Positions 36,448 through 53,804 of a stretch of DNA of 64,000 nt are shown in pieces; position 1 is the first letter of the stretch, and the number at the start of each line of letters is the position of its first letter. The DNA lies in assembly GCF_058153355.1 (NCBI RefSeq), contig NZ_CM177019.1; one strand, given 5' to 3'. The notes beneath the pieces are model-generated. The model did not search any database. It was not told the DNA's origin and worked only from the letters and a program-made list of their open reading frames with translations. Both the position numbers and the translations under genes were made by a program.

Positions 36448-38727
36448 ATGGATGACCAGTTAAAACAAAGTGCACTTGATTTCCATGAATTTCCAGTTCC
36501 AGGGAAAATCCAGGTTTCTCCAACCAAGCCTCTGGCAACGCAGCGCGATCTGGCGCTGGCCTACTCACCAGGCGTTGCCGCACCTTGTCTAGAAATCGAA
36601 AAAGACCCGTTAAAAGCCTACAAATATACCGCTCGTGGTAACCTGGTGGCGGTGATCTCTAACGGTACGGCGGTGCTGGGGTTAGGCAACATTGGCGCGC
36701 TGGCAGGCAAACCGGTGATGGAAGGCAAGGGCGTTCTGTTTAAGAAATTCGCCGGGATTGATGTATTTGACATTGAAGTTGATGAACTTGACCCGGACAA
36801 ATTTATTGAAGTCGTCGCTGCGCTCGAACCGACCTTCGGCGGCATCAACCTCGAAGACATTAAAGCGCCAGAATGTTTCTATATTGAACAGAAACTGCGC
36901 GAGCGGATGAATATTCCAGTATTCCACGACGATCAGCACGGCACGGCAATTATCAGCACTGCAGCCATCCTCAACGGATTGCGCGTGGTGGAGAAAAACA
37001 TCTCCGACGTGCGAATGGTGGTTTCCGGCGCGGGTGCAGCAGCAATTGCCTGTATGAACCTGCTGGTAGCGCTGGGGCTGCAAAAACATAACATCGTGGT
37101 TTGTGATTCAAAAGGCGTTATCTATCAGGGCCGTGAGCCAAATATGGCGGAAACCAAAGCCGCATATGCGGTGGTGGATGACGGCAAACGTACCCTCGAT
37201 GATGTAATTGAAGGCGCGGATATTTTCCTGGGCTGTTCCGGCCCGAAAGTGCTGACCCAGGAAATGGTTAAGAAAATGGCTCGTGCGCCGATGATCCTGG
37301 CGCTTGCAAACCCGGAACCAGAAATTCTGCCGCCGCTGGCGAAAGAAGTGCGTCCGGATGCCATCATCTGTACCGGCCGTTCCGACTACCCGAACCAGGT
37401 TAATAACGTGCTTTGCTTCCCGTTCATCTTCCGTGGCGCGTTGGACGTTGGTGCAACTGCCATCAACGAGGAAATGAAACTGGCGGCGGTACGCGCGATT
37501 GCAGAACTGGCCCATGCGGAACAGAGCGAAGTCGTTGCTTCGGCGTATGGCGATCAAGATTTGAGCTTCGGTCCGGAATACATCATTCCAAAACCGTTTG
37601 ATCCGCGTTTGATCGTTAAGATCGCTCCTGCGGTCGCTAAAGCGGCGATGGAGTCGGGCGTGGCGACGCGTCCGATTGCTGATTTCGACGTCTACATCGA
37701 CAAGCTGACTGAGTTCGTTTACAAAACCAACCTGTTTATGAAGCCGATTTTCTCCCAGGCCCGCAAAGCGCCGAAGCGCGTTGTTTTGCCGGAAGGGGAA
37801 GAGGCTCGCGTTCTGCATGCTACTCAGGAACTGGTGACGCTGGGACTGGCGAAACCGATCCTTATCGGTCGTCCGAACGTGATCGAAATGCGCATTCAAA
37901 AACTGGGCTTGCAGATCAAAGCGGGCGTTGATTTTGAGATCGTCAATAACGAATCCGATCCGCGTTTTAAAGAATACTGGACCGAATACTTCCAGATCAT
38001 GAAGCGCCGTGGTGTAACTCAGGAGCAGGCACAGCGGGCGCTGATCAGTAACCCGACAGTGATCGGCGCGATCATGGTTCAGCGTGGCGAAGCCGATGCA
38101 ATGATTTGCGGTACGGTGGGTGATTATCATGAACACTTCAGCGTGGTGAAAAATGTCTTTGGTTATCGCGATGGCGTTCACACCGCAGGTGCAATGAACG
38201 CGCTGCTATTGCCGAGTGGTAACACTTTTATTGCCGATACCTACGTCAATGACGAGCCAGACGCAGAAGAGCTGGCGGAGATCACCTTGATGGCGGCAGA
38301 AACTGTTCGTCGTTTTGGTATTGAGCCGCGTGTGGCTCTGTTGTCGCACTCCAACTTTGGTTCTTCTGACTGCCCGTCGTCGAGCAAAATGCGTCAAGCG
38401 CTGGAACTGGTCAGAGAGCGTGCGCCAGAACTGATGATTGATGGTGAAATGCACGGCGATGCAGCGCTGGTGGAAGCGATTCGCAGCGATCGTATGCCGG
38501 ACAGCCCTTTGAAAGGTTCCGCCAATATTCTGGTGATGCCGAACATGGAAGCTGCCCGTATTAGTTACAACTTACTGCGCGTTTCCAGCTCGGAAGGTGT
38601 GACTGTCGGTCCGGTGCTGATGGGTGTGGCGAAACCGGTTCACGTGTTAACACCAATCGCATCCGTACGTCGTATCGTCAACATGGTGGCGCTGGCCGTG
38701 GTTGAAGCGCAAACCCAACCGCTGTAA
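36448..38727 (+). CDS. maeB: NADP-dependent malic enzyme (malic enzyme plus PTA-like domain)
   Basis: 759-aa [26 protein letters not shown]... Confidence 0.93.
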
Positions 38728-38744
38728 TTCATTCTTAACTCTCA

Positions 38745-38777
38745 CGCTTACCCTGAATATTCAGGGTAAGCGGTTTT
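38745..38777 (+). terminator. Rho-independent terminator after maeB
   Basis: CGCTTACCCTGAA-tat-TCAGGGTAAGCG perfect 13-bp stem followed by GTTTT. Confidence 0.8.
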
Positions 38778-39019
38778 ACTGTAATATATTAGTAAAGCTT
38801 ATTACTAAGTTTTCGAATAATAAAAAAAGCAGCATATAAACTATCTCGATATCATTTTATTTATATTCATGCGTTGCATATGAAAGTTTATGCATCACAG
38901 TAAATATCTCTCCATTCTTAGTGATCTACCTCACCTTTTAAACGCGCTTGCCGAATTTTGTTATTTACTCTGACGAAAAATTGTCACGATACACGAAAGT
39001 TTTTCACAGGCGGCGACTC

Positions 39020-39355
39020 ATGGATAAAGAACGCATCATTCAGGAATTTGTGCCCGGCAAACAGGTCACACTGGCGCATCTCATCGCGCATCCCGGCGAG
39101 GAACTGGCGAAGAAAATCGGCGTTCCTGATGCGGGCGCAATCGGCATTATGACGCTAACTCCCGGCGAAACGGCGATGATCGCCGGTGATTTAGCACTAA
39201 AAGCCGCCGATGTGCATATCGGTTTTCTCGACCGTTTTAGCGGCGCGCTGGTGATTTATGGCTCGGTGGGTGCAGTAGAAGAAGCGTTATCACAAACCGT
39301 CAGTGGTTTAGGTCGCTTATTAAATTATACGCTTTGTGAAATGACCAAAAGTTAA
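39020..39355 (+). CDS. eutS: Ethanolamine microcompartment shell protein EutS
   Basis: [26 protein letters not shown]..., 111 aa, BMC domain. Confidence 0.88.
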
Positions 39356-39367
39356 TACGAGGCATTC

Positions 39368-39847
39368 ATGGAACGAATTGCGTTTGTGGGTACCGTCGGG
39401 GCAGGAAAAACAACGTTATTTAATGCGTTGCAGGGGAATTATACCCTCGCCAGAAAAACACAGGCCGTGGAATTTAATGATAAGGGCGATATTGATACGC
39501 CGGGTGAATATTTTAGCCATCCCCGCTGGTATCACGCCTTAATTACCACGCTACAGGATGTGGACATGCTGATTTATGTCCACGGCGCGAATGACCCGGA
39601 AAGCCGATTGCCTGCCGGGTTGCTGGATATTGGTGCCAGCAAACGGCAAATCGCCGTCATCAGTAAAACGGACATGCCGGATGCTGACGTCGCAGCAACG
39701 CGAAAGTTATTGCTTGAAACTGGTTTTGAAGAGCCGATTTTCGAGCTAAACAGCCACGACCCGCAAAGCGTGCAGCAACTGGTGAATTATCTGGCATCTC
39801 TCACCGAACAGGAGGAAGCAGGTGAAAAAACTCATCACAGCGAATGA
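39368..39847 (+). CDS. eutP: Ethanolamine utilisation GTPase/acetate-kinase-like EutP
   Basis: 159-aa ORF with P-loop GTVGAGKTT. Confidence 0.88.
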   Translation: MERIAFVGTVGAGKTTLFNALQGNYTLARKTQAVEFNDKGDIDTPGEYFSHPRWYHALITTLQDVDMLIYVHGANDPESRLPAGLLDIGASKRQIAVISKTDMPDADVAATRKLLLETGFEEPIFELNSHDPQSVQQLVNYLASLTEQEEAGEKTHHSE

Positions 39848-40523
39848 TATTCGTGAAGCACATGCGCGCGGCGAACAGGCAATGTCTGTGGTTCTGCGCG
39901 CCAGCATTATTACCCCGGAAGCCCGCGAAGTGGCGGACTTGCTGGGGTTTACCATCACCGAATGCACTGAATCGACGCCAGTAGCGGCATCTGTTCCCGT
40001 CAGCGTGCCTGCCGATAAAACTGAAAGCCAGCGTATCCGCGAAACCATCATCGCCCAGCTGCCGGAAGGCCAGTTTACCGAAAGCCTGGTCGCGCAGCTG
40101 ATGGAAAAAGTGATGAAGGAAAAACAGTCGCTGGAGCAGGGGGCAATGCAGCCGAGTTTTAAATCGGTGACCGGCAAAGGCGGCATCAAAGTTATTGATG
40201 GCAGCAGCGTGAAGTTTGGTCGTTTCGATGGCGCGGAACCGCACTGCGTAGGCTTGACTGATCTCGTGACCGGAGACGACGGCAGCAGCATGGCCGCCGG
40301 TTTTATGCAGTGGGAGAACGCCTTCTTCCCGTGGACCCTGAACTACGACGAAATCGACATGGTACTGGAAGGGGAGCTTCATGTTCGCCATGAAGGCGAA
40401 ACCATGATCGCTAAAGCAGGCGACGTGATGTTTATCCCGAAAGGTTCCAGCATCGAATTTGGTACGACATCCAGTGTGAAATTCCTGTATGTCGCCTGGC
40501 CGGCTAACTGGCAATCCCTATGA
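39822..40523 (+). CDS. eutQ: Ethanolamine utilisation cupin protein EutQ
   Basis: 233-aa ORF; operon position. Confidence 0.88.
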   Translation: MKKLITANDIREAHARGEQAMSVVLRASIITPEAREVADLLGFTITECTESTPVAASVPVSVPADKTESQRIRETIIAQLPEGQFTESLVAQLMEKVMKEKQSLEQGAMQPSFKSVTGKGGIKVIDGSSVKFGRFDGAEPHCVGLTDLVTGDDGSSMAAGFMQWENAFFPWTLNYDEIDMVLEGELHVRHEGETMIAKAGDVMFIPKGSSIEFGTTSSVKFLYVAWPANWQSL

Positions 40524-41323
40524 AAGATTTCATCACCGAAGCATGGCTAAGAGCGAACCATACGCTCAGCGAAGGCGCAGAGATCCATCTCCCTGCGGAC
40601 AGTCGCCTGACGCCCTCTGCCCGGGAGTTACTGGAAAGCCGCCATCTGCGCATCAAGTTTATTGACGAGCAGGGCCGCCTGTTTGTTGACGATGAACAGC
40701 AGCAGCTACAGCCCGTTCACGTGCTGACCAGTAGTGATGAACATCCGCAGGCGTGCTGCGAACTGTGTCACCAGCCAGTGGCGAAAAAGCCGGACACGCT
40801 GACTCACCTGTCGGCGGAAAAAATGGTCGCCAAAAGCGATCCGCGCCTGGGTTTTCGCGCTGTTCTCGACAGCACCATTGCGCTGGTAGTGTGGCTGCAA
40901 ATTGAACTGACAGAACCGTGGCAGCCGTGGCTGGCAGATATCCGTTCGCGTCTTGGCAACATTATGCGTGCCGATGTGTTGGGCGAACCGCTGGCCTGCC
41001 AGGCGATTGTCGGGCTTTCTGACGAAGATCTGCATCGGCTTTCTCACCAGCCGCTGCGCTATCTTGGTCACGATCATCTGGTGCCGGAAGCCAGCCACGG
41101 ACGCGATGCGGCGTTGCTGAATCTGCTACGCACCAAAGTGCGGGAAACCGAAACCGTCGCGGCGCAGGTGTTTATTACCCGTAGTTTTGAAGTATTACGC
41201 CCGGACATCTTGCAGGCGCTGAACCGCCTTTCCAGCACGGTTTACGTGATGATGATTTTGAGCGTAACGAAGCAGCCGCTAACGGTGAAGCAGATCCAAC
41301 AACGACTGGGGGAAACGCAATGA
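40520..41323 (+). CDS. eutT: Ethanolamine corrinoid adenosyltransferase EutT
   Basis: 267-aa ORF; overlapping stop/start with eutQ and eutD. Confidence 0.88.
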
Positions 41324-42336
41324 TTATTGAACGTTGTCGTGAACTGGCGTTGCGAGCGCCCGCCACAGTGGTATTTCCGGATGCGTTAGATCAACGTGTG
41401 CTGAAAGCTGCGCAATATTTACATCAACAAGGTCTGGCAACGCCCATTCTGGTCGCCAATCCGTTTGAACTTCGTCAGTTTGCGCTCAGTCACGGCGTGG
41501 CGATGGACGGGCTACAGGTGATAGATCCGCATGGCAACCTCGCAATGCGGGAAGAATTTGCTCTCCGCTGGCTGGCCCGTGCGGGCGAAAAAACGCCGCC
41601 GGATGCGCTGGAAAAACTCACCGATCCGCTGATGTTCGCTGCCGCAATGGTCAGCGCCGGGACAGCGGATGTCTGTATCGCGGGCAATCTCTCTTCCACG
41701 GCAAATGTGCTGCGTGCCGGATTACGCATTATTGGCTTACAGCCAGGCTGTAAAACGCTCTCCTCCATTTTCCTGATGCTGCCACAGTACAGTGGCCCCG
41801 CATTGGGCTTTGCCGATTGCAGCGTAGTGCCACAGCCGACGGCGGCACAACTGGCGGATATCGCGCTTGCCAGCGCCGAAACCTGGCGCGCCATCACCGG
41901 AGAAGAGCCGCGCGTGGCGATGTTGTCGTTTTCCAGTAACGGCAGCGCCCGTCACCCCTGCGTTGCCAACGTCCAGCAGGCGACAGAAATCGTCCGTGAG
42001 CGCGCACCGCAGCTGGTCGTCGATGGCGAGTTGCAGTTTGACGCCGCCTTTGTGCCGGAAGTGGCGGCGCAAAAAGCGCCAGCCAGCCTGCTACAGGGCA
42101 AAGCCAATGTGATGGTTTTTCCGTCGCTGGAGGCGGGAAATATTGGCTACAAAATCGCACAACGACTTGGCGGATATCGTGCCGTCGGGCCATTGATACA
42201 AGGACTTGCCGCGCCGATGCACGATCTCTCTCGTGGTTGTAGCGTGCAGGAAATTATCGAGCTGGCGCTGGTGGCAGCTGTGCCGCGTCAGACAAAAGTG
42301 AACCGCGAAAGCAGTTTACAAACACTGGTTGAATGA
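41320..42336 (+). CDS. eutD: Phosphotransacetylase EutD
   Basis: 338-aa PTA-family ORF. Confidence 0.9.
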
Positions 42337-42374
42337 ACGGTCCCGTTCTGGACCCCTATAAAGAGGAAAACACA

Positions 42375-42668
42375 ATGGAAGCATTAGGAATGATCGAAAC
42401 CCGGGGCCTGGTTGCACTGATTGAGGCTTCTGATGCGATGGTGAAAGCTGCGCGCGTCAAACTGGTTGGTGTTAAGCAGATTGGCGGCGGCCTGTGTACT
42501 GCCATGGTTCGCGGTGATGTTGCAGCCTGTAAAGCCGCGACCGATGCCGGTGCCGCAGCGGCACAGCGTATCGGTGAACTGGTATCCGTACATGTTATTC
42601 CGCGTCCGCACGGCGACCTGGAAGAAGTTTTCCCGATCGGCCTGAAAGGCGATAGCAGCAACCTGTAA
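42375..42668 (+). CDS. eutM: Ethanolamine microcompartment major shell protein EutM
   Basis: [32 protein letters not shown]..., 97 aa, canonical BMC-H. Confidence 0.9.
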
Positions 42669-42773
42669 TCACCCTGTGTGACGTCGATTCGGGCGTCACG
42701 CTCTCTCCTTTTTCAGTTTACCTTCCGCGGAGGGTAGGGGAGCTTTTACCTGAAATACGCCACGGAGGCGGGT
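42669..42773 (+). promoter_or_regulatory. Structured eutM-eutN intergenic spacer (intra-operon hairpin)
   Basis: 105-nt gap in an otherwise tightly packed operon; contains GTGACG-tcgattcggg-CGTCAC stem-loop about 10 nt after the eutM stop. Confidence 0.4.
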
Positions 42774-43061
42774 ATGAAACTGGCAGTCGTCACAGGACAA
42801 ATTGTTTGTACCGTACGCCATCACGGACTGGCGCATGACAAATTGCTGATGGTGGAAATGATTGATCCACAAGGTAATCCTGATGGGCAATGTGCTGTCG
42901 CCATCGACAATATTGGCGCGGGAACCGGGGAGTGGGTGTTGCTGGTGAGTGGCAGTTCCGCCCGCCAGGCGCATAAAAGCGAAACGTCACCGGTCGATCT
43001 GTGCGTAATTGGCATTGTCGATGAGGTGGTCTCTGGCGGTCAGGTAATTTTCCACAAATAA
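42774..43061 (+). CDS. eutN: Ethanolamine microcompartment vertex protein EutN
   Basis: 95-aa ORF MKLAVVTGQIVCTVRHHGL..., EutN/CcmL family. Confidence 0.9.
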   Translation: MKLAVVTGQIVCTVRHHGLAHDKLLMVEMIDPQGNPDGQCAVAIDNIGAGTGEWVLLVSGSSARQAHKSETSPVDLCVIGIVDEVVSGGQVIFHK

Positions 43062-43072
43062 GGCAGAACATC

Positions 43073-44476
43073 ATGAATCAACAGGATATTGAACAGGTGG
43101 TGAAAGCGGTACTGCTGAAAATGCAAAGCAGTGACACGTCGCCCGCCGCCGTTCATGAGATGGGCGTTTTTGCTTCCCTGGATGACGCCGTTGCGGCGGC
43201 CAAAATTGCCCAGCAAGGGTTAAAAAGCGTGGCAATGCGCCAGTTAGCCATTGCTGCCATTCGTGAAGCAGGCGAAAAACACGCCAGAGATTTAGCGGAA
43301 CTTGCCGTCAGTGAAACGGGTATGGGCCGCGTAGAAGATAAATTTGCCAAAAACGTCGCTCAGGCACGCGGTACGCCAGGCGTTGAGTGCCTCTCTCCAC
43401 AGGTGCTGACCGGTGACAACGGCCTGACTTTAATTGAAAACGCGCCCTGGGGCGTGGTGGCTTCGGTGACGCCTTCCACTAACCCGGCGGCAACCGTAAT
43501 TAATAACGCCATCAGCCTGATTGCCGCGGGCAACAGCGTCATTTTTGCCCCGCATCCGGCGGCGAAAAAAGTCTCTCAACGGGCTATTACGTTGCTCAAC
43601 CAGGCGATTGTTGCCGCAGGCGGGCCGGAAAACTTACTGGTTACTGTGGCAAATCCAGATATCGAAACCGCGCAACGCTTATTCAAGTTTCCGGGCATCG
43701 GTCTGTTGGTGGTGACCGGCGGCGAAGCGGTAGTGGAAGCGGCGCGCAAACACACCAATAAACGTCTGATTGCCGCAGGTGCTGGCAACCCGCCGGTGGT
43801 GGTGGATGAAACCGCCGACCTCGCCCGTGCCGCTCAGTCCATCGTCAAAGGCGCTTCTTTCGATAACAACATCATTTGTGCCGATGAAAAGGTACTGATT
43901 GTTGTTGATAGCGTAGCCGATGAACTAATGCGTCTGATGGAAGGCCAGCACGCGGTGAAACTGACCGCAGAACAGGCGCAGCAGCTACAACCGGTGTTGC
44001 TGAAAAATATCGATGAGTGCGGAAAAGGCACCGTCAGCCGTGACTGGGTGGGTCGCGATGCGGCGAAAATCGCGGCGGCAATCGGCCTGAACGTGCCGCA
44101 AGAAACGCGCTTGCTGTTTATAGAAACCCCCGCAGAACATCCGTTTGCCGTGACCGAACTGATGATGCCAGTGCTGCCGGTCGTGCGCGTCGCCAACGTG
44201 GCGGATGCCATTGCGCTGGCGGTGAAACTGGAAGGCGGTTGCCACCACACGGCGGCAATGCACTCGCGCAATATCGAGAACATGAACCAAATGGCGAACG
44301 CCATTGAAACCAGTATTTTCGTTAAGAACGGACCGTGCATTGCCGGGCTGGGGCTGGGCGGGGAAGGCTGGACCACGATGACCATCACTACGCCAACCGG
44401 TGAAGGGGTAACCAGCGCGCGTACGTTTGTCCGTCTGCGTCGCTGTGTATTAGTCGATGCGTTTCGCATTGTTTAA
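43073..44476 (+). CDS. eutE: CoA-acylating acetaldehyde dehydrogenase EutE
   Basis: 467-aa aldehyde dehydrogenase ORF. Confidence 0.9.
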   Translation: MNQQDIEQVVKAVLLKMQSSDTSPAAVHEMGVFASLDDAVAAAKIAQQGLKSVAMRQLAIAAIREAGEKHARDLAELAVSETGMGRVEDKFAKNVAQARGTPGVECLSPQVLTGDNGLTLIENAPWGVVASVTPSTNPAATVINNAISLIAAGNSVIFAPHPAAKKVSQRAITLLNQAIVAAGGPENLLVTVANPDIETAQRLFKFPGIGLLVVTGGEAVVEAARKHTNKRLIAAGAGNPPVVVDETADLARAAQSIVKGASFDNNIICADEKVLIVVDSVADELMRLMEGQHAVKLTAEQAQQLQPVLLKNIDECGKGTVSRDWVGRDAAKIAAAIGLNVPQETRLLFIETPAEHPFAVTELMMPVLPVVRVANVADAIALAVKLEGGCHHTAAMHSRNIENMNQMANAIETSIFVKNGPCIAGLGLGGEGWTTMTITTPTGEGVTSARTFVRLRRCVLVDAFRIV

Positions 44477-44486
44477 GGAGTAACCG

Positions 44487-45323
44487 ATGGCGCATGACGA
44501 ACAATGGCTTACCCCGCGGCTGCAAACGGCGGCAACGCTGTGTAACCAGACGCCCGCCGCGTCGGAATCTCCGCTGTGGTTGGGGGTGGATCTGGGCACC
44601 TGCGATGTGGTGTCGATGGTTGTCGACGGCGACGGTCAGCCGGTGGCGGTATGCCTCGACTGGGCCGATGTGGTACGCGACGGCATCGTCTGGGATTTCT
44701 TCGGTGCAGTTACGATTGTTCGTCGCCATCTCGATACCCTCGAGCAGCAATTTGGTCGCCGTTTTAGCCGTGCGGCGACTTCATTTCCACCAGGTACGGA
44801 TCCGCGTATTTCCATCAATGTGCTGGAGTCTGCCGGGCTGGAAGTGAGCCATGTGCTGGATGAGCCAACCGCAGTCGCGGATCTGCTGCAACTGGACAAC
44901 GCCGGTGTAGTGGATATTGGCGGCGGCACTACCGGAATTGCCATCGTGAAAAAGGGCAAGGTGACTTATTCAGCGGATGAAGCGACCGGCGGACATCACA
45001 TTTCTCTGACTCTCGCCGGAAATCGCCGTATTTCGCTGGAAGAGGCAGAGCAGTACAAGCGCGGTCACGGTGACGAGATTTGGCCTGCGGTGAAGCCGGT
45101 GTACGAAAAAATGGCGGACATTGTTGCCCGACATATTGAAGGGCAGGGCATTACTGATTTATGGCTGGCGGGCGGTTCCTGTATGCAACCGGGCGTGGCG
45201 GAGCTGTTTCGCAAACAATTCCCGGCGTTACAGGTGTATTTACCGCAGCACAGTTTGTTTATGACCCCACTGGCGATCGCCAGTAGCGGGCGAGAGAAAG
45301 CGGAGGGGCTATATGCAAAATGA
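44487..45323 (+). CDS. eutJ: Ethanolamine utilisation chaperone-like EutJ
   Basis: 278-aa actin/Hsp70-fold ORF. Confidence 0.88.
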   Translation: MAHDEQWLTPRLQTAATLCNQTPAASESPLWLGVDLGTCDVVSMVVDGDGQPVAVCLDWADVVRDGIVWDFFGAVTIVRRHLDTLEQQFGRRFSRAATSFPPGTDPRISINVLESAGLEVSHVLDEPTAVADLLQLDNAGVVDIGGGTTGIAIVKKGKVTYSADEATGGHHISLTLAGNRRISLEEAEQYKRGHGDEIWPAVKPVYEKMADIVARHIEGQGITDLWLAGGSCMQPGVAELFRKQFPALQVYLPQHSLFMTPLAIASSGREKAEGLYAK

Positions 45324-46500
45324 ATTGCAGACCGCGCTCTTTCAGGCGTTCGATACCCTGAATCTGCAACGGGTAAAAACATTTAGCGTTCCACCGGTGA
45401 CGCTTTGCGGTCCGGGCGCGGTGAGCAGTTGCGGACAGCAAGCGCAAACGCGTGGGCTGAAACATCTGTTCGTGATGGCAGACAGCTTTTTGCATCAGGC
45501 AGGGATGACCGCCGGGCTGACGCGTAGCCTGGCCGTTAAAGGTATCGCCATGACGCTCTGGCCATGTCCGGTGGGCGAACCGTGCATCACTGACGTGTGT
45601 GCAGCCGTGGCGCAGTTGCGTGAATCAGGCTGTGATGGGGTGATCGCGTTTGGCGGTGGCTCGGTGCTGGATGCGGCAAAAGCCGTGGCGTTGCTGGTAA
45701 CGAATCCCGATAGCACGCTGGCAGAAATGTCAGAAACCAGCGTTCTGCAACCGCGCCTGCCGTTGATTGCCATTCCAACTACCGCCGGAACCGGCTCTGA
45801 AACCACCAATGTAACGGTGATTATCGACGCGGTGAGCGGGCGCAAGCAGGTGTTAGCACATGCCTCGTTGATGCCGGATGTGGCGATTCTCGACGCCGCG
45901 CTGACCGAAGGTGTGCCGTCGCATGTCACGGCAATGACCGGTATCGACGCGTTAACCCATGCTATTGAAGCGTACAGCGCGCTGTACGCTACACCGTTTA
46001 CCGACAGCCTAGCGATTGGTGCCATTGCGATGATTGGCAAATCGCTGCCGAAAGCGGTGGGCTACGGTCATGACCTTGCCGCGCGCGAGAGCATGTTACT
46101 GGCTTCATGTATGGCGGGAATGGCATTTTCCAGTGCCGGACTTGGGTTATGTCACGCGATGGCGCATCAGCCGGGGGCGGCGCTGCATATTCCGCACGGA
46201 CTGGCGAACGCCATGCTGCTGCCCACGGTGATGGAGTTTAACCGGATGGTCTGTCGCGAACGGTTTAGTCAGATTGGTCGGGCGCTGCGAACTAAAAAAT
46301 CAGACGATCGTGACGCTATTAACGCGGTAAGTGAGCTGATTGCGGAAGTCGGGATTGGTAAACGACTGGGCGATGTTGGTGCGGCATCTGCGCATTACGG
46401 CGCATGGGCGCAGGCCGCGCTGGAAGATATTTGTCTGCGCAGCAACCCGCGTACCGCCAGCCTGGAGCAGATTGTCGGCTTGTACGCAGCGGCGCAATAA
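45313..46500 (+). CDS. eutG: Iron-containing alcohol dehydrogenase EutG
   Basis: 395-aa Fe-ADH ORF. Confidence 0.9.
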   Translation: MQNELQTALFQAFDTLNLQRVKTFSVPPVTLCGPGAVSSCGQQAQTRGLKHLFVMADSFLHQAGMTAGLTRSLAVKGIAMTLWPCPVGEPCITDVCAAVAQLRESGCDGVIAFGGGSVLDAAKAVALLVTNPDSTLAEMSETSVLQPRLPLIAIPTTAGTGSETTNVTVIIDAVSGRKQVLAHASLMPDVAILDAALTEGVPSHVTAMTGIDALTHAIEAYSALYATPFTDSLAIGAIAMIGKSLPKAVGYGHDLAARESMLLASCMAGMAFSSAGLGLCHAMAHQPGAALHIPHGLANAMLLPTVMEFNRMVCRERFSQIGRALRTKKSDDRDAINAVSELIAEVGIGKRLGDVGAASAHYGAWAQAALEDICLRSNPRTASLEQIVGLYAAAQ

Positions 46501-46595
<95 letters not shown>

Positions 46596-46616
46596 AACTA
46601 ACAGGGAGTAAAGGCG

Positions 46617-47843
46617 ATGGGAATTAACGAAATCATCATGTACATCATGATGTTCTTTATGCTGATAGCTGCCGTGGACAGGATCCTGTCGCAGTTCGGC
46701 GGTTCTGCTCGTTTCCTCGGTAAGTTCGGTAAAAGTATCGAAGGATCAGGCGGTCAGTTCGAAGAAGGCTTTATGGCAATGGGCGCTCTGGGCCTGGCGA
46801 TGGTCGGTATGACCGCGCTGGCACCGGTACTGGCTCACGTACTCGGGCCGGTAATTATCCCGGTTTACGAAATGCTCGGCGCAAACCCGTCAATGTTCGC
46901 CGGAACGCTGCTGGCGTGCGATATGGGCGGCTTCTTCCTCGCCAAAGAGCTGGCGGGCGGCGACGTAGCAGCGTGGCTATACTCTGGGTTAATTCTCGGG
47001 TCGATGATGGGGCCAACGATTGTGTTTTCCATTCCGGTGGCGCTCGGCATTATCGAACCTTCTGACCGTCGTTATCTGGCGCTCGGCGTGCTGGCGGGCA
47101 TTGTGACCATTCCGATTGGCTGTATTGCTGGTGGTCTGGTGGCTATGTACTCCGGTGTGCAGATCAACGGTCAGCCGGTGGAATTCACCTTTGCCCTGAT
47201 CCTGATGAACATGATCCCGGTACTTATCGTTGCGGTGCTGGTGGCGCTGGGGCTGAAATTCATCCCGGAAAAAATGATCAACGGCTTCCAGATCTTCGCC
47301 AAATTCCTCGTTGCATTGATCACCCTCGGTCTTGCTGCCGCGGTAGTGAAATTCCTGCTCGGTTGGGAACTGATCCCCGGTCTGGATCCGATCTTCATGG
47401 CCCCTGGCGATAAACCCGGTGAAGTGATGCGCGCCATTGAAGTTATCGGTTCTATCTCCTGCGTGCTGTTAGGGGCGTATCCGATGGTGCTGCTGCTGAC
47501 CCGCTGGTTTGAAAAACCGCTGATGAGCGTCGGTAAAGTGCTGAATATGAACAACATCGCGGCAGCCGGCATGGTGGCAACGCTTGCCAACAACATCCCG
47601 ATGTTTGGCATGATGAAGCAGATGGATACCCGCGGCAAAGTCATCAACTGTGCCTTCGCCGTTTCCGCTGCTTTCGCCCTGGGTGACCACTTAGGCTTCG
47701 CCGCTGCCAACATGAACGCCATGATCTTCCCGATGATTGTCGGCAAGTTGATCGGCGGCGTAACGGCGATTGGCGTGGCGATGATGCTGGTGCCAAAAGA
47801 AGACGCGACCGCGGCTAAAACCGAAGCGGAGGCACAATCGTGA
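46617..47843 (+). CDS. eutH: Ethanolamine permease EutH
   Basis: 408-aa polytopic membrane ORF. Confidence 0.9.
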   Translation: MGINEIIMYIMMFFMLIAAVDRILSQFGGSARFLGKFGKSIEGSGGQFEEGFMAMGALGLAMVGMTALAPVLAHVLGPVIIPVYEMLGANPSMFAGTLLACDMGGFFLAKELAGGDVAAWLYSGLILGSMMGPTIVFSIPVALGIIEPSDRRYLALGVLAGIVTIPIGCIAGGLVAMYSGVQINGQPVEFTFALILMNMIPVLIVAVLVALGLKFIPEKMINGFQIFAKFLVALITLGLAAAVVKFLLGWELIPGLDPIFMAPGDKPGEVMRAIEVIGSISCVLLGAYPMVLLLTRWFEKPLMSVGKVLNMNNIAAAGMVATLANNIPMFGMMKQMDTRGKVINCAFAVSAAFALGDHLGFAAANMNAMIFPMIVGKLIGGVTAIGVAMMLVPKEDATAAKTEAEAQS

Positions 47844-49243
47844 ACACTCGCCAGCTACTGAGCGTCGGTATCGATATCGGCACTACCACCACCCAGGTGA
47901 TCTTCTCCCACCTGGAGCTGGTTAACCGTGCGGCGGTGTCGCAGGTGCCGCGCTACGAATTCATCAAACGCGAAATTAGCTGGCAAAGCCCGGTGTTCTT
48001 TACCCCTGTCGATAAACTGGGCGGTTTAAAAGAAGCGGAACTGAAAACCTTAATCCTCGAGCAATATCAGGCTGCGGGCATTGCGCCGGAAAGCGTTGAT
48101 TCTGGTGCCATCATCATCACCGGTGAAAGCGCGAAAACCCGCAATGCTCGCCCGGCGGTGATGACGCTCTCTCAGTCGCTGGGCGATTTTGTCGTTGCCA
48201 GCGCTGGGCCGCATCTCGAATCCGTGATCGCCGGTCACGGTGCTGGGGCGCAAACCCTTTCTGAACAACGGTTATGTCGGGTACTGAATATTGACATCGG
48301 CGGTGGCACCGCGAACTACGCTTTGTTCGATGCCGGAAAAATCAGCGGCACTGCCTGCCTTAACGTCGGCGGTCGCCTGCTGGAAACCGACAGCCAGGGG
48401 CGCGTGGTTTACGCTCATAAACCGGGGCAGATGATAGTGGATGAGTGCTTTGGTGCAGGCACTGACGCCCGTTCACTGACCGGCGCGCAGCTGGTGCAGG
48501 TTACCCGGCGGATGGCGGAACTGATTGTCGAAGTGATTGACGGAACGCTCTCGCCGCTCGCGCAGGCATTGATGCAAACCGGTTTGCTGCCCGCAGGTGT
48601 TACGCCCGAAATCATTACGCTTTCTGGCGGCGTGGGCGAATGTTATCGCCACCAGCCCGCTGACCCGTTCTGTTTTGCCGATATTGGCCCGCTTCTGGCA
48701 ACGGCGCTGCATGAGCATCCTCGTCTGCGTGAGATGAACGTGCAGTTTCCAGCGCAAACCGTGCGCGCCACGGTGATTGGCGCGGGCGCACATACTCTTT
48801 CGCTCTCTGGCAGCACAATCTGGCTGGAGGGGGTACAACTGCCGCTGCGCAATTTGCCGGTGGCGATCCCAATTGATGAAACGGATCTGGTGAGTGCCTG
48901 GCAACAGGCGCTGATTCAGCTGGATCTTGATCCCAAAACTGACGCGTACGTGCTGGCGCTTCCCGCCTCGCTGCCTGTGCGTTACGCCGCGGTACTGACG
49001 GTCATCAACGCGCTGGTCGATTTCGTCGCGCGTTTTCCGAATCCGCATCCCCTGCTGGTGGTGGCCGGGCAGGACTTTGGTAAAGCTCTGGGCATGTTGT
49101 TGCGCCCACAGCTACAACAACTCCCGTTGGCAGTCATTGACGAAGTGATTGTCCGCGCGGGGGACTATATCGACATTGGTACGCCTCTTTTTGGCGGATC
49201 GGTTGTGCCGGTGACGGTGAAATCACTCGCATTTCCTTCCTGA
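47840..49243 (+). CDS. eutA: Ethanolamine ammonia-lyase reactivase EutA
   Basis: 467-aa ORF; stop is 12 bp before eutB start. Confidence 0.9.
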   Translation: MNTRQLLSVGIDIGTTTTQVIFSHLELVNRAAVSQVPRYEFIKREISWQSPVFFTPVDKLGGLKEAELKTLILEQYQAAGIAPESVDSGAIIITGESAKTRNARPAVMTLSQSLGDFVVASAGPHLESVIAGHGAGAQTLSEQRLCRVLNIDIGGGTANYALFDAGKISGTACLNVGGRLLETDSQGRVVYAHKPGQMIVDECFGAGTDARSLTGAQLVQVTRRMAELIVEVIDGTLSPLAQALMQTGLLPAGVTPEIITLSGGVGECYRHQPADPFCFADIGPLLATALHEHPRLREMNVQFPAQTVRATVIGAGAHTLSLSGSTIWLEGVQLPLRNLPVAIPIDETDLVSAWQQALIQLDLDPKTDAYVLALPASLPVRYAAVLTVINALVDFVARFPNPHPLLVVAGQDFGKALGMLLRPQLQQLPLAVIDEVIVRAGDYIDIGTPLFGGSVVPVTVKSLAFPS

Positions 49244-49254
49244 GGGAACGACTT

Positions 49255-50616
49255 ATGAAACTAAAGACCACATTGTTCGGCAATGTATATCAGTTTAAGG
49301 ATGTAAAAGAGGTGCTGGCTAAAGCCAACGAACTTCGTTCGGGGGATGTGCTGGCGGGCGTTGCAGCGGCAAGCTCACAGGAGCGCGTGGCGGCAAAGCA
49401 GGTGTTGTCGGAAATGACTGTAGCGGATATCCGCAATAATCCGGTGATTGCCTATGAAGATGACTGCGTGACGCGACTGATTCAGGACGACGTTAACGAA
49501 ACGGCCTACAACCAGATTAAAAACTGGAGCATCAGCGAACTGCGTGAGTATGTGCTGAGTGATGAAACCAGCGTTGGCGACATTGCTTTTACCCGCAAAG
49601 GGCTGACCTCGGAAGTGGTCGCGGCGGTAGCGAAGATTTGCTCTAACGCGGACCTGATCTACGGCGCGAAGAAAATGCCGGTAATCAAAAAGGCCAATAC
49701 AACTATTGGTATTCCGGGCACCTTCAGCGCCCGTTTGCAGCCAAACGATACCCGCGACGACGTGCAAAGTATCGCCGCGCAAATCTACGAAGGGCTTTCT
49801 TTCGGGGTGGGCGATGCGGTGATCGGCGTTAACCCGGTGACTGACGACGTGGAAAACTTAAGCCGCGTGCTGGATACCATCTATGGCGTGATCGACAAAT
49901 TCAACATTCCGACCCAGGGCTGCGTGCTGGCGCACGTTACTACCCAGATTGAAGCGATCCGTCGCGGCGCGCCGGGCGGGCTGATTTTCCAGAGCATCTG
50001 CGGCAGCGAAAAAGGGCTGAAAGAGTTTGGCGTAGAGCTGGCGATGCTCGACGAAGCGCGCGCAGTGGGCGCGGAGTTCAACCGTATCGCCGGGGAAAAC
50101 TGCCTCTACTTCGAAACCGGGCAAGGCTCGGCGCTATCCGCTGGCGCTAACTTCGGCGCTGACCAGGTGACGATGGAAGCACGTAACTATGGGCTGGCGC
50201 GTCATTATGATCCGTTTATCGTCAACACCGTGGTCGGTTTTATTGGGCCGGAGTATCTCTACAACGACCGCCAGATTATCCGTGCTGGCTTAGAAGATCA
50301 CTTTATGGGCAAGCTGAGCGGCATCTCTATGGGCTGTGACTGCTGCTACACCAACCACGCTGACGCTGACCAGAACCTCAACGAAAACCTGATGATCCTG
50401 CTCGCCACCGCAGGCTGCAACTACATCATGGGGATGCCGCTGGGTGATGACATCATGCTCAACTACCAGACCACCGCATTCCACGATACCGCCACTGTGC
50501 GTCAGTTACTCAACCTGCGCCCGTCACCGGAGTTTGAACGCTGGCTGGAAAGCATGGGCATTATGGCAAACGGTCGCCTGACCAAACGGGCGGGCGATCC
50601 GTCACTGTTCTTCTGA
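49255..50616 (+). CDS. eutB: Ethanolamine ammonia-lyase large subunit EutB
   Basis: 453-aa ORF MKLKTTLFGNVYQFKDVKEVLAKANE... Confidence 0.92.
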   Translation: MKLKTTLFGNVYQFKDVKEVLAKANELRSGDVLAGVAAASSQERVAAKQVLSEMTVADIRNNPVIAYEDDCVTRLIQDDVNETAYNQIKNWSISELREYVLSDETSVGDIAFTRKGLTSEVVAAVAKICSNADLIYGAKKMPVIKKANTTIGIPGTFSARLQPNDTRDDVQSIAAQIYEGLSFGVGDAVIGVNPVTDDVENLSRVLDTIYGVIDKFNIPTQGCVLAHVTTQIEAIRRGAPGGLIFQSICGSEKGLKEFGVELAMLDEARAVGAEFNRIAGENCLYFETGQGSALSAGANFGADQVTMEARNYGLARHYDPFIVNTVVGFIGPEYLYNDRQIIRAGLEDHFMGKLSGISMGCDCCYTNHADADQNLNENLMILLATAGCNYIMGMPLGDDIMLNYQTTAFHDTATVRQLLNLRPSPEFERWLESMGIMANGRLTKRAGDPSLFF

Positions 50617-50636
50617 TGACGCGGAGATAACACATC

Positions 50637-51524
50637 ATGGATCAAAAACAGATTGAAGAAATTGTACGCAGCGTGATGGCGTCAATGGGACAAGCGGCCC
50701 CCGCGCCGTCAGAAGCAAAATGCGCCACTACCACCTGTGCAGCACCGGTGACCTCGGAAAGCTGCGCGCTGGATTTAGGTTCCGCGGAAGCAAAAGCGTG
50801 GATTGGCATTGAAAACCCGCATCGCGCAGACGTATTAACAGAACTGCGCCGCAGCACCGTGGCTCGCGTCTGTACCGGTCGTGCTGGTCCGCGTCCGCGT
50901 ACCCAGGCGTTGTTGCGTTTCCTGGCCGATCACTCTCGTTCGAAAGACACCGTACTGAAAGAAGTGCCGGAAGAGTGGGTGAAAGCGCAGGGCTTGCTGG
51001 AGGTCCGCTCTGAAATTAGCGACAAAAATCTCTATCTGACTCGCCCGGATATGGGCCGCCGCTTGTGTGCAGAGGCTGTTGAAGCGCTGAAAGCGCAGTG
51101 TGTTGCTAATCCGGACGTACAGGTGGTTATTTCCGATGGTCTATCTACTGATGCGATCACCGTGAACTATGAAGAGATTCTGCCACCGCTGATGGCGGGC
51201 CTGAAACAGGCCGGGTTGAAAGTCGGCACACCGTTCTTTGTGCGTTACGGTCGCGTGAAGATTGAAGATCAGATTGGCGAACTTCTTGGCGCGAAAGTGG
51301 TGATCCTGCTGGTGGGTGAACGTCCGGGGTTGGGGCAGTCAGAAAGTCTCTCCTGCTACGCCGTTTACTCGCCGCGTATGGTAACCACCGTTGAGGCCGA
51401 TCGCACCTGTATCTCTAACATTCACCAGGGCGGCACGCCGCCGGTTGAAGCCGCAGCCGTCATTGTGGATTTGGCGAAACGTATGCTGGAGCAGAAAGCA
51501 TCCGGCATCAACATGACCCGATAA
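50637..51524 (+). CDS. eutC: Ethanolamine ammonia-lyase small subunit EutC
   Basis: 295-aa ORF. Confidence 0.92.
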
Positions 51525-51533
51525 GGAGGCATC

Positions 51534-52193
51534 ATGCCAGCTTTAGATTTGATTCGACCGTCGGTAACCGCCATGCGGGTGATAGCCTCTGTTAACGCCG
51601 AATTTGCGCGTGAACTGAAATTGCCGCCGCATATTCGTAGCCTCGGGCTGATTTCTGCTGATTCCGATGACGTCACCTACATTGCGGCTGACGAAGCGAC
51701 CAAGCAGGCGATGGTTGAAGTCGTGTATGGTCGCTCGCTGTATGCGGGAGCTGCACACGGGCCGTCACCGACTGCCGGTGAAGTGCTGATTATGCTCGGG
51801 GGGCCAAACCCGGCGGAAGTGCGTGCCGGTCTGGATGCGATGGTTGCGCATATTGAAAATGGCGCTGCTTTCCAGTGGGCTAATGATGCAGAAAACACAG
51901 CCTTCCTGGCGCATGTCGTTTCGCGTACCGGCTCTTATCTCTCATCAACCGCCGGGATCACGCTTGGCGATCCGCTGGCGTATCTGGTGGCACCGCCGCT
52001 GGAAGCGACTTACGGCATTGATGCAGCGTTGAAATCTGCCGACGTGCAACTGGTGACCTATGTACCGCCACCGTCTGAAACCAACTACTCGGCAGCATTT
52101 TTAACCGGTAGCCAGGCCGCGTGTAAAGCAGCCTGTAACGCCTTTACCGATGCAGTGCTGGAAATCGCGCGTAATCCAATCCAGCGTGCGTAA
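51534..52193 (+). CDS. eutL: Ethanolamine microcompartment shell protein EutL (tandem BMC)
   Basis: 219-aa ORF. Confidence 0.9.
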
Positions 52194-52205
52194 CGGAGGT
52201 TGCCG

Positions 52206-52706
52206 ATGATCAATGCACTGGGATTGCTGGAAGTGGACGGCATGGTCGCCGCGATAGATGCAGCTGATGCCATGCTCAAAGCAGCTAACGTTCGTCTGCT
52301 CAGTCACGAAGTGCTTGACCCTGGTCGCCTAACGCTGGTGGTGGAAGGCGATCTGGCGGCGTGTCGTGCGGCGCTGGACGCAGGTTGTGCTGCCGCGATG
52401 CGTACCGGGCGTGTCATCAGCCGTAAGGAGATCGGTCGGCCAGACGATGACACCCAGTGGCTGGTTACTGGCTTTAACCGCCAGCCGAAGCAACCCGTAA
52501 AGGAACCCGACGCGCCAGTTATCGTCGCGGAATCTGCTGACGAGTTGTTGGCGCTGTTAACATCAGTACGTCAGGGAATGACGGCAGGAGAAGTGGCTGC
52601 CCACTTTGGCTGGCCGCTGGAAAAAGCCAGAAATGCGCTCGAACAGCTCTTTTCTGCCGGGACGTTACGTAAACGCAGTAGTCGTTATCGTCTCAAGCCC
52701 CATTAA
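52206..52706 (+). CDS. eutK: Ethanolamine microcompartment shell protein EutK
   Basis: BMC domain plus C-terminal helix-turn-helix-like tail; start may be 2 codons upstream (52200). Confidence 0.88.
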   Translation: MINALGLLEVDGMVAAIDAADAMLKAANVRLLSHEVLDPGRLTLVVEGDLAACRAALDAGCAAAMRTGRVISRKEIGRPDDDTQWLVTGFNRQPKQPVKEPDAPVIVAESADELLALLTSVRQGMTAGEVAAHFGWPLEKARNALEQLFSAGTLRKRSSRYRLKPH

Positions 52707-52751
52707 CCTGTCGGAGGTGCCGGGTGTCCTACAACACCCGGCATTAACATC

Positions 52752-53804
52752 ATGAAAAAGACCCGTACAGCTAATTTGCACCATCTTTATCATGAACCCT
52801 TACCCGAAAACCTGAAGCTAACGCCGAAGGTCGAAGTGGATAATGTTCATCAACGGCAAACAACGGATGTCTATGAACATGCTTTGACGATTACCGCCTG
52901 GCAGCAGATTTACGATCAGCTGCATCCGGGCAAATTTCATGGTGAATTTACGGAAATTCTGCTCGATGATATTCAGGTTTTCCGTGAATACACGGGGCTG
53001 GCGCTGCGTCAGTCGTGCCTGGTCTGGCCGAATTCGTTCTGGTTTGGCATTCCGGCGACGCGCGGTGAGCAGGGATTTATCGGTTCGCAATGTCTGGGAA
53101 GCGCAGAAATAGCGACGCGCCCTGGTGGAACCGAGTTTGAATTAAGTACGCCGGACGATTACACGATCCTTGGCGTGGTGCTTTCTGAAGATGTCATCAC
53201 CCGGCAGGCTAACTTTTTGCATAACCCGGAAAGGGTGCTGCATATGTTACGTAACCAGTCGGCGCTGGAAGTGAAAGAGCAGCATAAAGCCGCGCTGTGG
53301 GGCTTTGTCCAACAGGCTCTGGCGACATTTTGCGAGAACCCGGAAAATCTCCATCAGCCTGCAGTGCGAAAAGTGCTGGGGGATAATTTGCTAATGGCGA
53401 TGGGGGCGATGCTGGAAGAAGCGCAGCCAATGGTGACGGTGGAAAGCATCAGTCATCAGAGTTACCGTCGGTTGCTTTCCCGCGCCCGTGAATATGTGCT
53501 GGAAAACATGTCCGAACCGGTGACGGTGCTGGACTTGTGTAATCAACTGCACGTCAGTCGCCGCACCTTGCAAAACGCATTTCACGCTATTTTGGGCATT
53601 GGCCCGAATGCGTGGCTGAAACGCATTCGCCTGAACGCCGTGCGCCGTGAACTGATTAGCCCGTGGTCGCAAAGTATGACGGTAAAAGACGCCGCCATGC
53701 AGTGGGGATTCTGGCATCTTGGGCAGTTTGCCACGGATTATCAGCAATTGTTTGCAGAAAAGCCTTCACTGACGCTGCATCAGCGGATGCAGGAACTGGA
53801 GTGA
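52752..53804 (+). CDS. eutR: AraC-family transcriptional activator EutR
   Basis: 350-aa ORF with C-terminal AraC helix-turn-helix. Confidence 0.9.

Follow-up and report, generated by a model that had tools for sequence, protein, structure and literature searches.

The ethanolamine utilization (eut) operon was analysed in a 64,000-nucleotide stretch of contig NZ_CM177019.1 (NCBI RefSeq assembly GCF_058153355.1), referred to here as the window. The operon is complete and is free of the prophage that is found within it in E. coli K-12. It is, with high confidence, a canonical enterobacterial operon of the EUT1 type in its ancestral, never-interrupted form, which is expected to be functional and is carried by a strain about 4% divergent from K-12 that most probably belongs to Escherichia cryptic clade I. 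In the raw sequence, the eutA stop codon TGA lies at 49241-49243 and is followed by an 11-bp spacer, GGGAACGACTT, and then by the eutB start codon ATG at 49255, in agreement with the initial annotation, which had given 49243 as the end of eutA and 49255 as the start of eutB. The eutA stop codon is part of the 8-bp core CTTCCTGA. This core occurs as one copy in the window (49236-49243), directly followed by the spacer, which carries the ribosome-binding region of eutB, and by eutB itself; core and spacer together make up an unoccupied integration site at 49236-49254, to which no strand is assigned. Searches of the 64-kb window with megablast, blastn and tblastn gave no match to the DNA of prophage CPZ-55 or to its nine proteins: its cargo, yffL to yffS, is absent both as DNA and as protein, IntZ gave no tblastn match, no integrase gene is found at the 5' end of eutB, and the window junction does not have two copies of CTTCCTGA bracketing inserted DNA.

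The record of E. coli MG1655 annotates a "cryptic prophage CPZ-55" of 6,790 bp at 2558691-2565480, between the stop codon of eutA (b2451) and a point 11 bp upstream of the ATG of eutB (b2441), which is exactly where the initial annotation had placed it. The genes of CPZ-55, intZ and yffL to yffS, are encoded opposite to eut. Extraction of both junctions showed the direct repeat CTTCCTGA on either side of the element, the left copy holding the eutA stop codon. A matching 8-bp target duplication has been published for CPZ-55, given as TCAGGAAG on the other strand (PMC6379469). Over 60 bp before the junction and about 70 bp after it, the window does not differ from K-12 (MG1655, BW25113). What K-12, which is phenotypically eut-negative, has in addition at this point is CPZ-55 and the duplicated 8-bp core; the gap between eutA and eutB is 11 bp in the window and 6,801 bp in K-12. 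That eutA and eutB only look contiguous because the assembly collapsed or lost a prophage where two contigs were joined is extremely improbable: such a join would not recreate a single 8-bp core with the exact 11-bp spacer, and the junction is, base for base, that of thousands of complete genomes and of other genera.

The remainder of the operon was defined by mapping the open reading frames (ORFs) of the region from 37.5 to 55.5 kb and by scanning the 17 products against NCBIfam with curated cutoffs. Plus-strand ORFs run without a break from the end of maeB (36448-38727) to 53804, and the 17 genes eutSPQTDMNEJGHABCLKR are contiguous on this strand, with eutR last. All 17 products match the expected models over their full length and far above the curated cutoffs, which bears out the gene set and the order claimed from the sequence at the outset. 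The models are at the equivalog level for EutS, P, Q, T, M, N, J, G, H, A, C, L, K and R, while EutB matches a subfamily model, EutD a phosphotransacetylase model and EutE the PRK15398 aldehyde dehydrogenase model.

The signature enzyme of an EUT1-type locus, ethanolamine ammonia-lyase, is represented by its large subunit EutB (49255-50616; NF011649, 663 bits) and its small subunit EutC (50637-51524; NF003971, 338 bits), and is accompanied by its reactivase EutA (47840-49243; NF007991, 1069 bits). The full set of bacterial microcompartment (BMC) shell proteins is also encoded, with an equivalog or subfamily match for all five: the BMC-H proteins EutM (42375-42668, 97 aa; NF012018, 212 bits) and EutK (52206-52706, 166 aa, with a C-terminal domain of nucleic-acid-binding type; NF012010, 362 bits), the BMC-T protein EutL (51534-52193; NF011934, 402 bits), the permuted BMC-H protein EutS (39020-39355, 111 aa; NF012012, 246 bits) and the pentameric BMC-P vertex protein EutN (42774-43061; NF011992, 210 bits). 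The associated enzymes and accessory proteins are all full length, namely the acetylating acetaldehyde dehydrogenase EutE (43073-44476; NF011927, 737 bits), the phosphotransacetylase EutD (41320-42336; NF007233, 406 bits), the alcohol dehydrogenase EutG (45313-46500; NF011998, 887 bits), the corrinoid adenosyltransferase EutT (40520-41323; NF011595, 562 bits), the ethanolamine permease or facilitator EutH (46617-47843; NF011665, 873 bits), EutP of the EutP/PduV family (39368-39847; NF012011, 347 bits) and the cupin EutQ (39822-40523; NF012001, 497 bits), both annotated as acetate kinases, and the chaperone-like EutJ with a DnaK/actin fold (44487-45323; NF011660, 399 bits). The operon ends with the gene for its AraC-type activator EutR (52752-53804; NF007522, 783 bits). 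In Salmonella enterica LT2, whose 17-gene eut operon is described as an EUT1-type microcompartment locus (Kofoid et al. 1999, as cited in PMC7617246), the same 17 genes stand in the same order and eutB directly follows eutA.

The start of eutS had initially been placed at 38948, which is only the TTG that opens the longest ORF. The ATG at 39020 is the likely start, since the EutS model aligns from residue 25 of the ORF and annotated orthologues measure 336 bp. By the same reasoning, eutM is taken to start at 42375 and eutK at 52206, because their models align from ORF residues 15 and 3, respectively.

The view that the uninterrupted arrangement is the ancestral one was examined with a degenerate 37-nt pattern, made up of the end of eutA, the exact 11-nt spacer and the start of eutB, that was run against a single genome for each GTDB species. 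The same junction of eutA stop, spacer and eutB start was found at 34 loci of species representatives in eight genera: Citrobacter (many species), Klebsiella, Salmonella, Yokenella, Pluralibacter, Pseudocitrobacter, Intestinirhabdus and Escherichia, the last represented by E. whittamii and unnamed species. Every one of the 34 aligns to the window as a single colinear segment across the junction, with 79.5-96.4% identity. The representative of Salmonella, S. enterica subsp. arizonae, has an identical stop, spacer and start at 84% nucleotide identity to the window; it belongs to another genus, with a DNA divergence of about 16%. The uninterrupted junction is therefore older than the split between these genera, in line with the ancestral state proposed for the intact operon. 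One of the 34 sequences, DXKH01000140.1 ("MAG Citrobacter sp. HRGM_Genome_0066"), shares 96.4% identity with the window across 7.9 kb of eut; this bin is probably mislabelled or contaminated, because its identity is at the level of Escherichia and not at the 84% or so that is typical of Citrobacter.

The site itself is used repeatedly by islands with IntZ-type integrases. Using a 2,777-bp query of eutA plus eutB, it was found that the two genes are contiguous in 4,964 of the 5,423 complete E. coli genomes with a match (91.5%, a slight upper bound, as pieces up to about 1.9 kb apart were joined). The K-12 intZ/eutB junction was matched in 403 genomes (7.4%) and the K-12-type eutA/yffS junction in 244 (4.5%); among the matches listed for the latter, the examples with 100% identity are laboratory strains. 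The difference between the two counts is due to other IntZ islands, which occupy the same site with different cargo. Islands of about 9-13 kb are found in strains CV839-06, PSJ-23, EC190486 and 102651, and a "novel prophage" was reported for the uropathogenic E. coli (UPEC) strain U71 (PMC6652756); all of these occupy the attachment site that is empty in the window, which carries no such island. In CV839-06 and PSJ-23 the island at the eutA/eutB site measures about 9.3 kb. The remaining occupied sites are derivatives riddled with insertion sequences (IS), some of which have lost eutBCLK or have broken eutA and eutB genes (EC190486, 102651); in EC190486 it is eutBCLK that is deleted. Depending on the strain, the cargo consists of a 726-aa hypothetical protein, helix-turn-helix regulators, a toxin of the YafO family, or gadC and murI with a decarboxylase fragment, and some islands have been invaded by IS1, IS3, IS5 or IS903B. 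In the four loci that were delimited in other E. coli strains, the islands span L003 20401-29707, L004 20401-29992, L040 17405-25774 and L041 17261-29248. These counts agree with an earlier survey in which the site was occupied in 8% of 638 strains (PMC6379469), and the site has been labelled a "prophage insertion hot spot" (PMC6652756).

Given this repeated use (an intZ island sits there in roughly 7% of E. coli genomes), it can be asked whether the site in the window is only secondarily empty, i.e. whether a former IntZ-type island was precisely excised and attB, the bacterial attachment site, was restored without a scar. Excision by a tyrosine recombinase is traceless in sequence, and sublines of K-12 do vary in their eut status, one laboratory's W3110 stock being eut-positive and BW25113 carrying the prophage (PMC11334477). 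Past integration followed by excision is nevertheless unparsimonious, as every close relative examined is also empty, and this history is very unlikely. A broader proposal would regard the junction as a conserved and still-competent attB, its core CTTCCTGA and spacer being invariant in eight genera, at which integration and excision of diverse IntZ islands would reversibly switch ethanolamine use on and off, with the empty site of the window resulting from excision or from selection for the ON state by the niche; it is regarded as unlikely. The preferred reading thus remains a site that was never occupied.

The frequency of contiguous eutA and eutB also weakens the suggestion, made in the initial annotation, that the uninterrupted operon would be a useful clue for strain typing, since this state is common to the great majority of complete E. 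coli genomes. Lack of CPZ-55 rules out no more than the K-12 lineage and the 8% or so of strains in which the site is occupied. The nucleotide divergence of about 4%, a rare two-gene cassette next to eutR and two copies of IS621 (both described below) are much more informative as typing markers.

Apart from the prophage, the operon closely resembles that of K-12. None of the 17 genes differs in length from its K-12 counterpart or contains an internal stop, and even the 26-nt overlap of eutP and eutQ is the same. The intergenic distances are equal to those of K-12 in all but three cases, which are the gap between eutA and eutB, the gap between eutG and eutH (116 bp in the window, 216 bp in K-12) and that between eutM and eutN (105 bp vs 106 bp). 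The eutG-eutH spacer (46501-46616, no strand assigned) was shown by its sequence and its folds to hold one unit of a bacterial interspersed mosaic element (BIME), i.e. a pair of repetitive extragenic palindromic (REP) sequences. The unit is about 100 bp long and is present once in the window, twice in K-12 and three times in strain N96, the range in mainstream E. coli being 1 to 3; this copy number is the only sizeable length difference from K-12 inside the operon, prophage aside.

At the nucleotide level, the eut coding sequences of the window and of K-12 are 95.7% identical. Codons differ at 601 of 4,815 positions, and just 74 of these changes (12% of the differing codons) are non-synonymous, which indicates purifying selection. 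EutS, EutM and EutN have 100% amino acid identity to their K-12 counterparts and EutB differs by one residue; the most diverged proteins are EutP (7 changes, 95.6% identity) and EutL (6 changes). The first 30 residues of EutC are identical to K-12, and these include the N-terminal region EutC1-20 that has been used as a targeting tag (PMC11334477), while the N-termini of EutD and EutE differ by one and two residues, respectively.

With respect to its origin, the window is about 96% identical to mainstream E. coli. The best match among complete E. coli genomes reached 98.2% over eut and about 99% in the flank, and none was near-identical. Window-level identity to strain 2013C-4282 was 99.0% over about 22 kb upstream of eut, and identity to both 2013C-4282 and EC42405 was 97.7% over the operon. 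According to PMC10100065, these two strains belong to Escherichia cryptic clade I, within which the average nucleotide identity (ANI) exceeds 98.3%, the value to E. coli sensu stricto being about 96%; a clade-I-specific gene of 1,368 bp, located outside the window in another part of the genome, is used for diagnostic polymerase chain reaction (PMC10100065). Because these high-identity relatives are clade I strains, the sequence most probably comes from a strain of this clade, and for typing, this placement says far more than the missing CPZ-55.

Since none of its 17 genes is truncated and all evolve under purifying selection, the operon is predicted to be functional. By analogy with the Salmonella and E. 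coli literature, EutR would activate the promoter upstream of eutS when ethanolamine and adenosylcobalamin are both present, and a single transcript would run from eutS through eutR. The ammonia-lyase EutBC, reactivated by EutA, would then cleave ethanolamine to ammonia and acetaldehyde within a shell of EutS, EutM, EutN, EutL and EutK, and EutE, EutD and EutG would convert the aldehyde into acetyl-CoA, acetyl-phosphate and ethanol. The main promoter (PI), presumed to depend on EutR, is placed on the same analogy (PMC7617246) in the 292-bp intergenic region between maeB and eutS (plus strand, 38728-39019). A strong, terminator-like hairpin on the plus strand at 38745-38772, with a 12-bp stem and a subsequent T-run, lies just after maeB and separates it from eut. 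Alignment of the eutS-proximal 170 bp or so revealed only 4 positions that differ from K-12.

In K-12, by contrast, the CPZ-55 island, with its tyrosine recombinase IntZ, is integrated at the 8-bp core CTTCCTGA, which overlaps the eutA stop codon. With 6.8 kb of opposite-strand DNA, the island cuts eutBCLKR off from the promoter, and the ability to use ethanolamine is lost. It was reported that in BW25113, which carries the prophage, eutS and eutR are induced and eutB is not, and that no microcompartments are formed (PMC7617246). The same strain fails to grow when ethanolamine is the nitrogen source, and growth returned once the prophage had been removed without a scar (PMC11334477). In E. coli strains with other uninterrupted operons, induction by ethanolamine plus B12, assembly of the shell and growth have been demonstrated (PMC7617246, PMC11334477). 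The uninterrupted operon of the window predicts the use of ethanolamine as a nitrogen source and possibly as a carbon source. Ethanolamine is a nutrient of the gut and the urinary tract that derives from host membranes, and K-12 laboratory strains are unable to use it; K-12 is the exception and is unsuitable as the reference state for eut. The intact operon and the biology of the prophage site have already been published (PMC6379469, PMC6652756, PMC7617246, PMC11334477), and the window presents an ordinary locus in its ordinary state.

Expression, formation of microcompartments and growth on ethanolamine are deduced here from the integrity of the sequence and from the behaviour of other strains. 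Some E. coli with intact operons use ethanolamine as a nitrogen source only and not for carbon (PMC11334477), so that the detailed phenotype is not predictable. When scanned for the sigma-70 consensus, the DNA upstream of eutS gave no promoter and the operon as a whole only one weak site, although the missing match is uninformative, and to be expected, for an activator-dependent promoter. The assignment to clade I draws on 64 kb and not on a whole genome, and the identities given above are window-level values and not ANI. An alternative is an operon that is intact in sequence and yet silent or impaired, for example owing to altered EutR control, a shortage of B12 or one of the 74 amino acid changes, of which EutP and EutL have the most. 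The small share of non-synonymous codons, the full-length matches of all products to their family models, the near-identity of the promoter-proximal DNA to K-12 and the recurrence of the same alleles in related genomes all speak against impairment, which is quite unlikely.

An Rfam scan of 36000-56500 returned no RNA family and hence no riboswitch or small-RNA layer, in which the window differs from the eut locus of Enterococcus, where such a layer is present. A GC-rich hairpin with a 10-bp stem was noted at 42676-42701, within the 105-bp gap between eutM and eutN and after eutM, the gene of the major shell protein; it might be an element that stabilizes the mRNA or an attenuator that sets the ratio of EutM to EutN.

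Downstream of the operon, a cassette of two genes (1.8 kb, of lower GC content) lies between the convergent genes eutR and hemF. Most mainstream E. coli lack it, and it was found in 25 of 5,426 genomes; none of the 34 outgroup loci from the junction scan has it next to eutR. This would suggest a simple lineage-specific gain, but the cassette fills the same slot in E. albertii and in one Citrobacter strain, so that it may have been either gained or repeatedly lost. In E. albertii GCA_025753935.1, no gene is called in the stretch of about 1.2 kb between a YpfK-like gene and eutK in which eutR is expected (locus L042, 6632-7805), and this gap may represent an eutR pseudogene. Upstream of eut, two identical copies of IS621 are located in REP sequences; an assignment of the two 326-aa transposase ORFs to IS5 was rejected, and they belong to IS110-family/IS621 elements.

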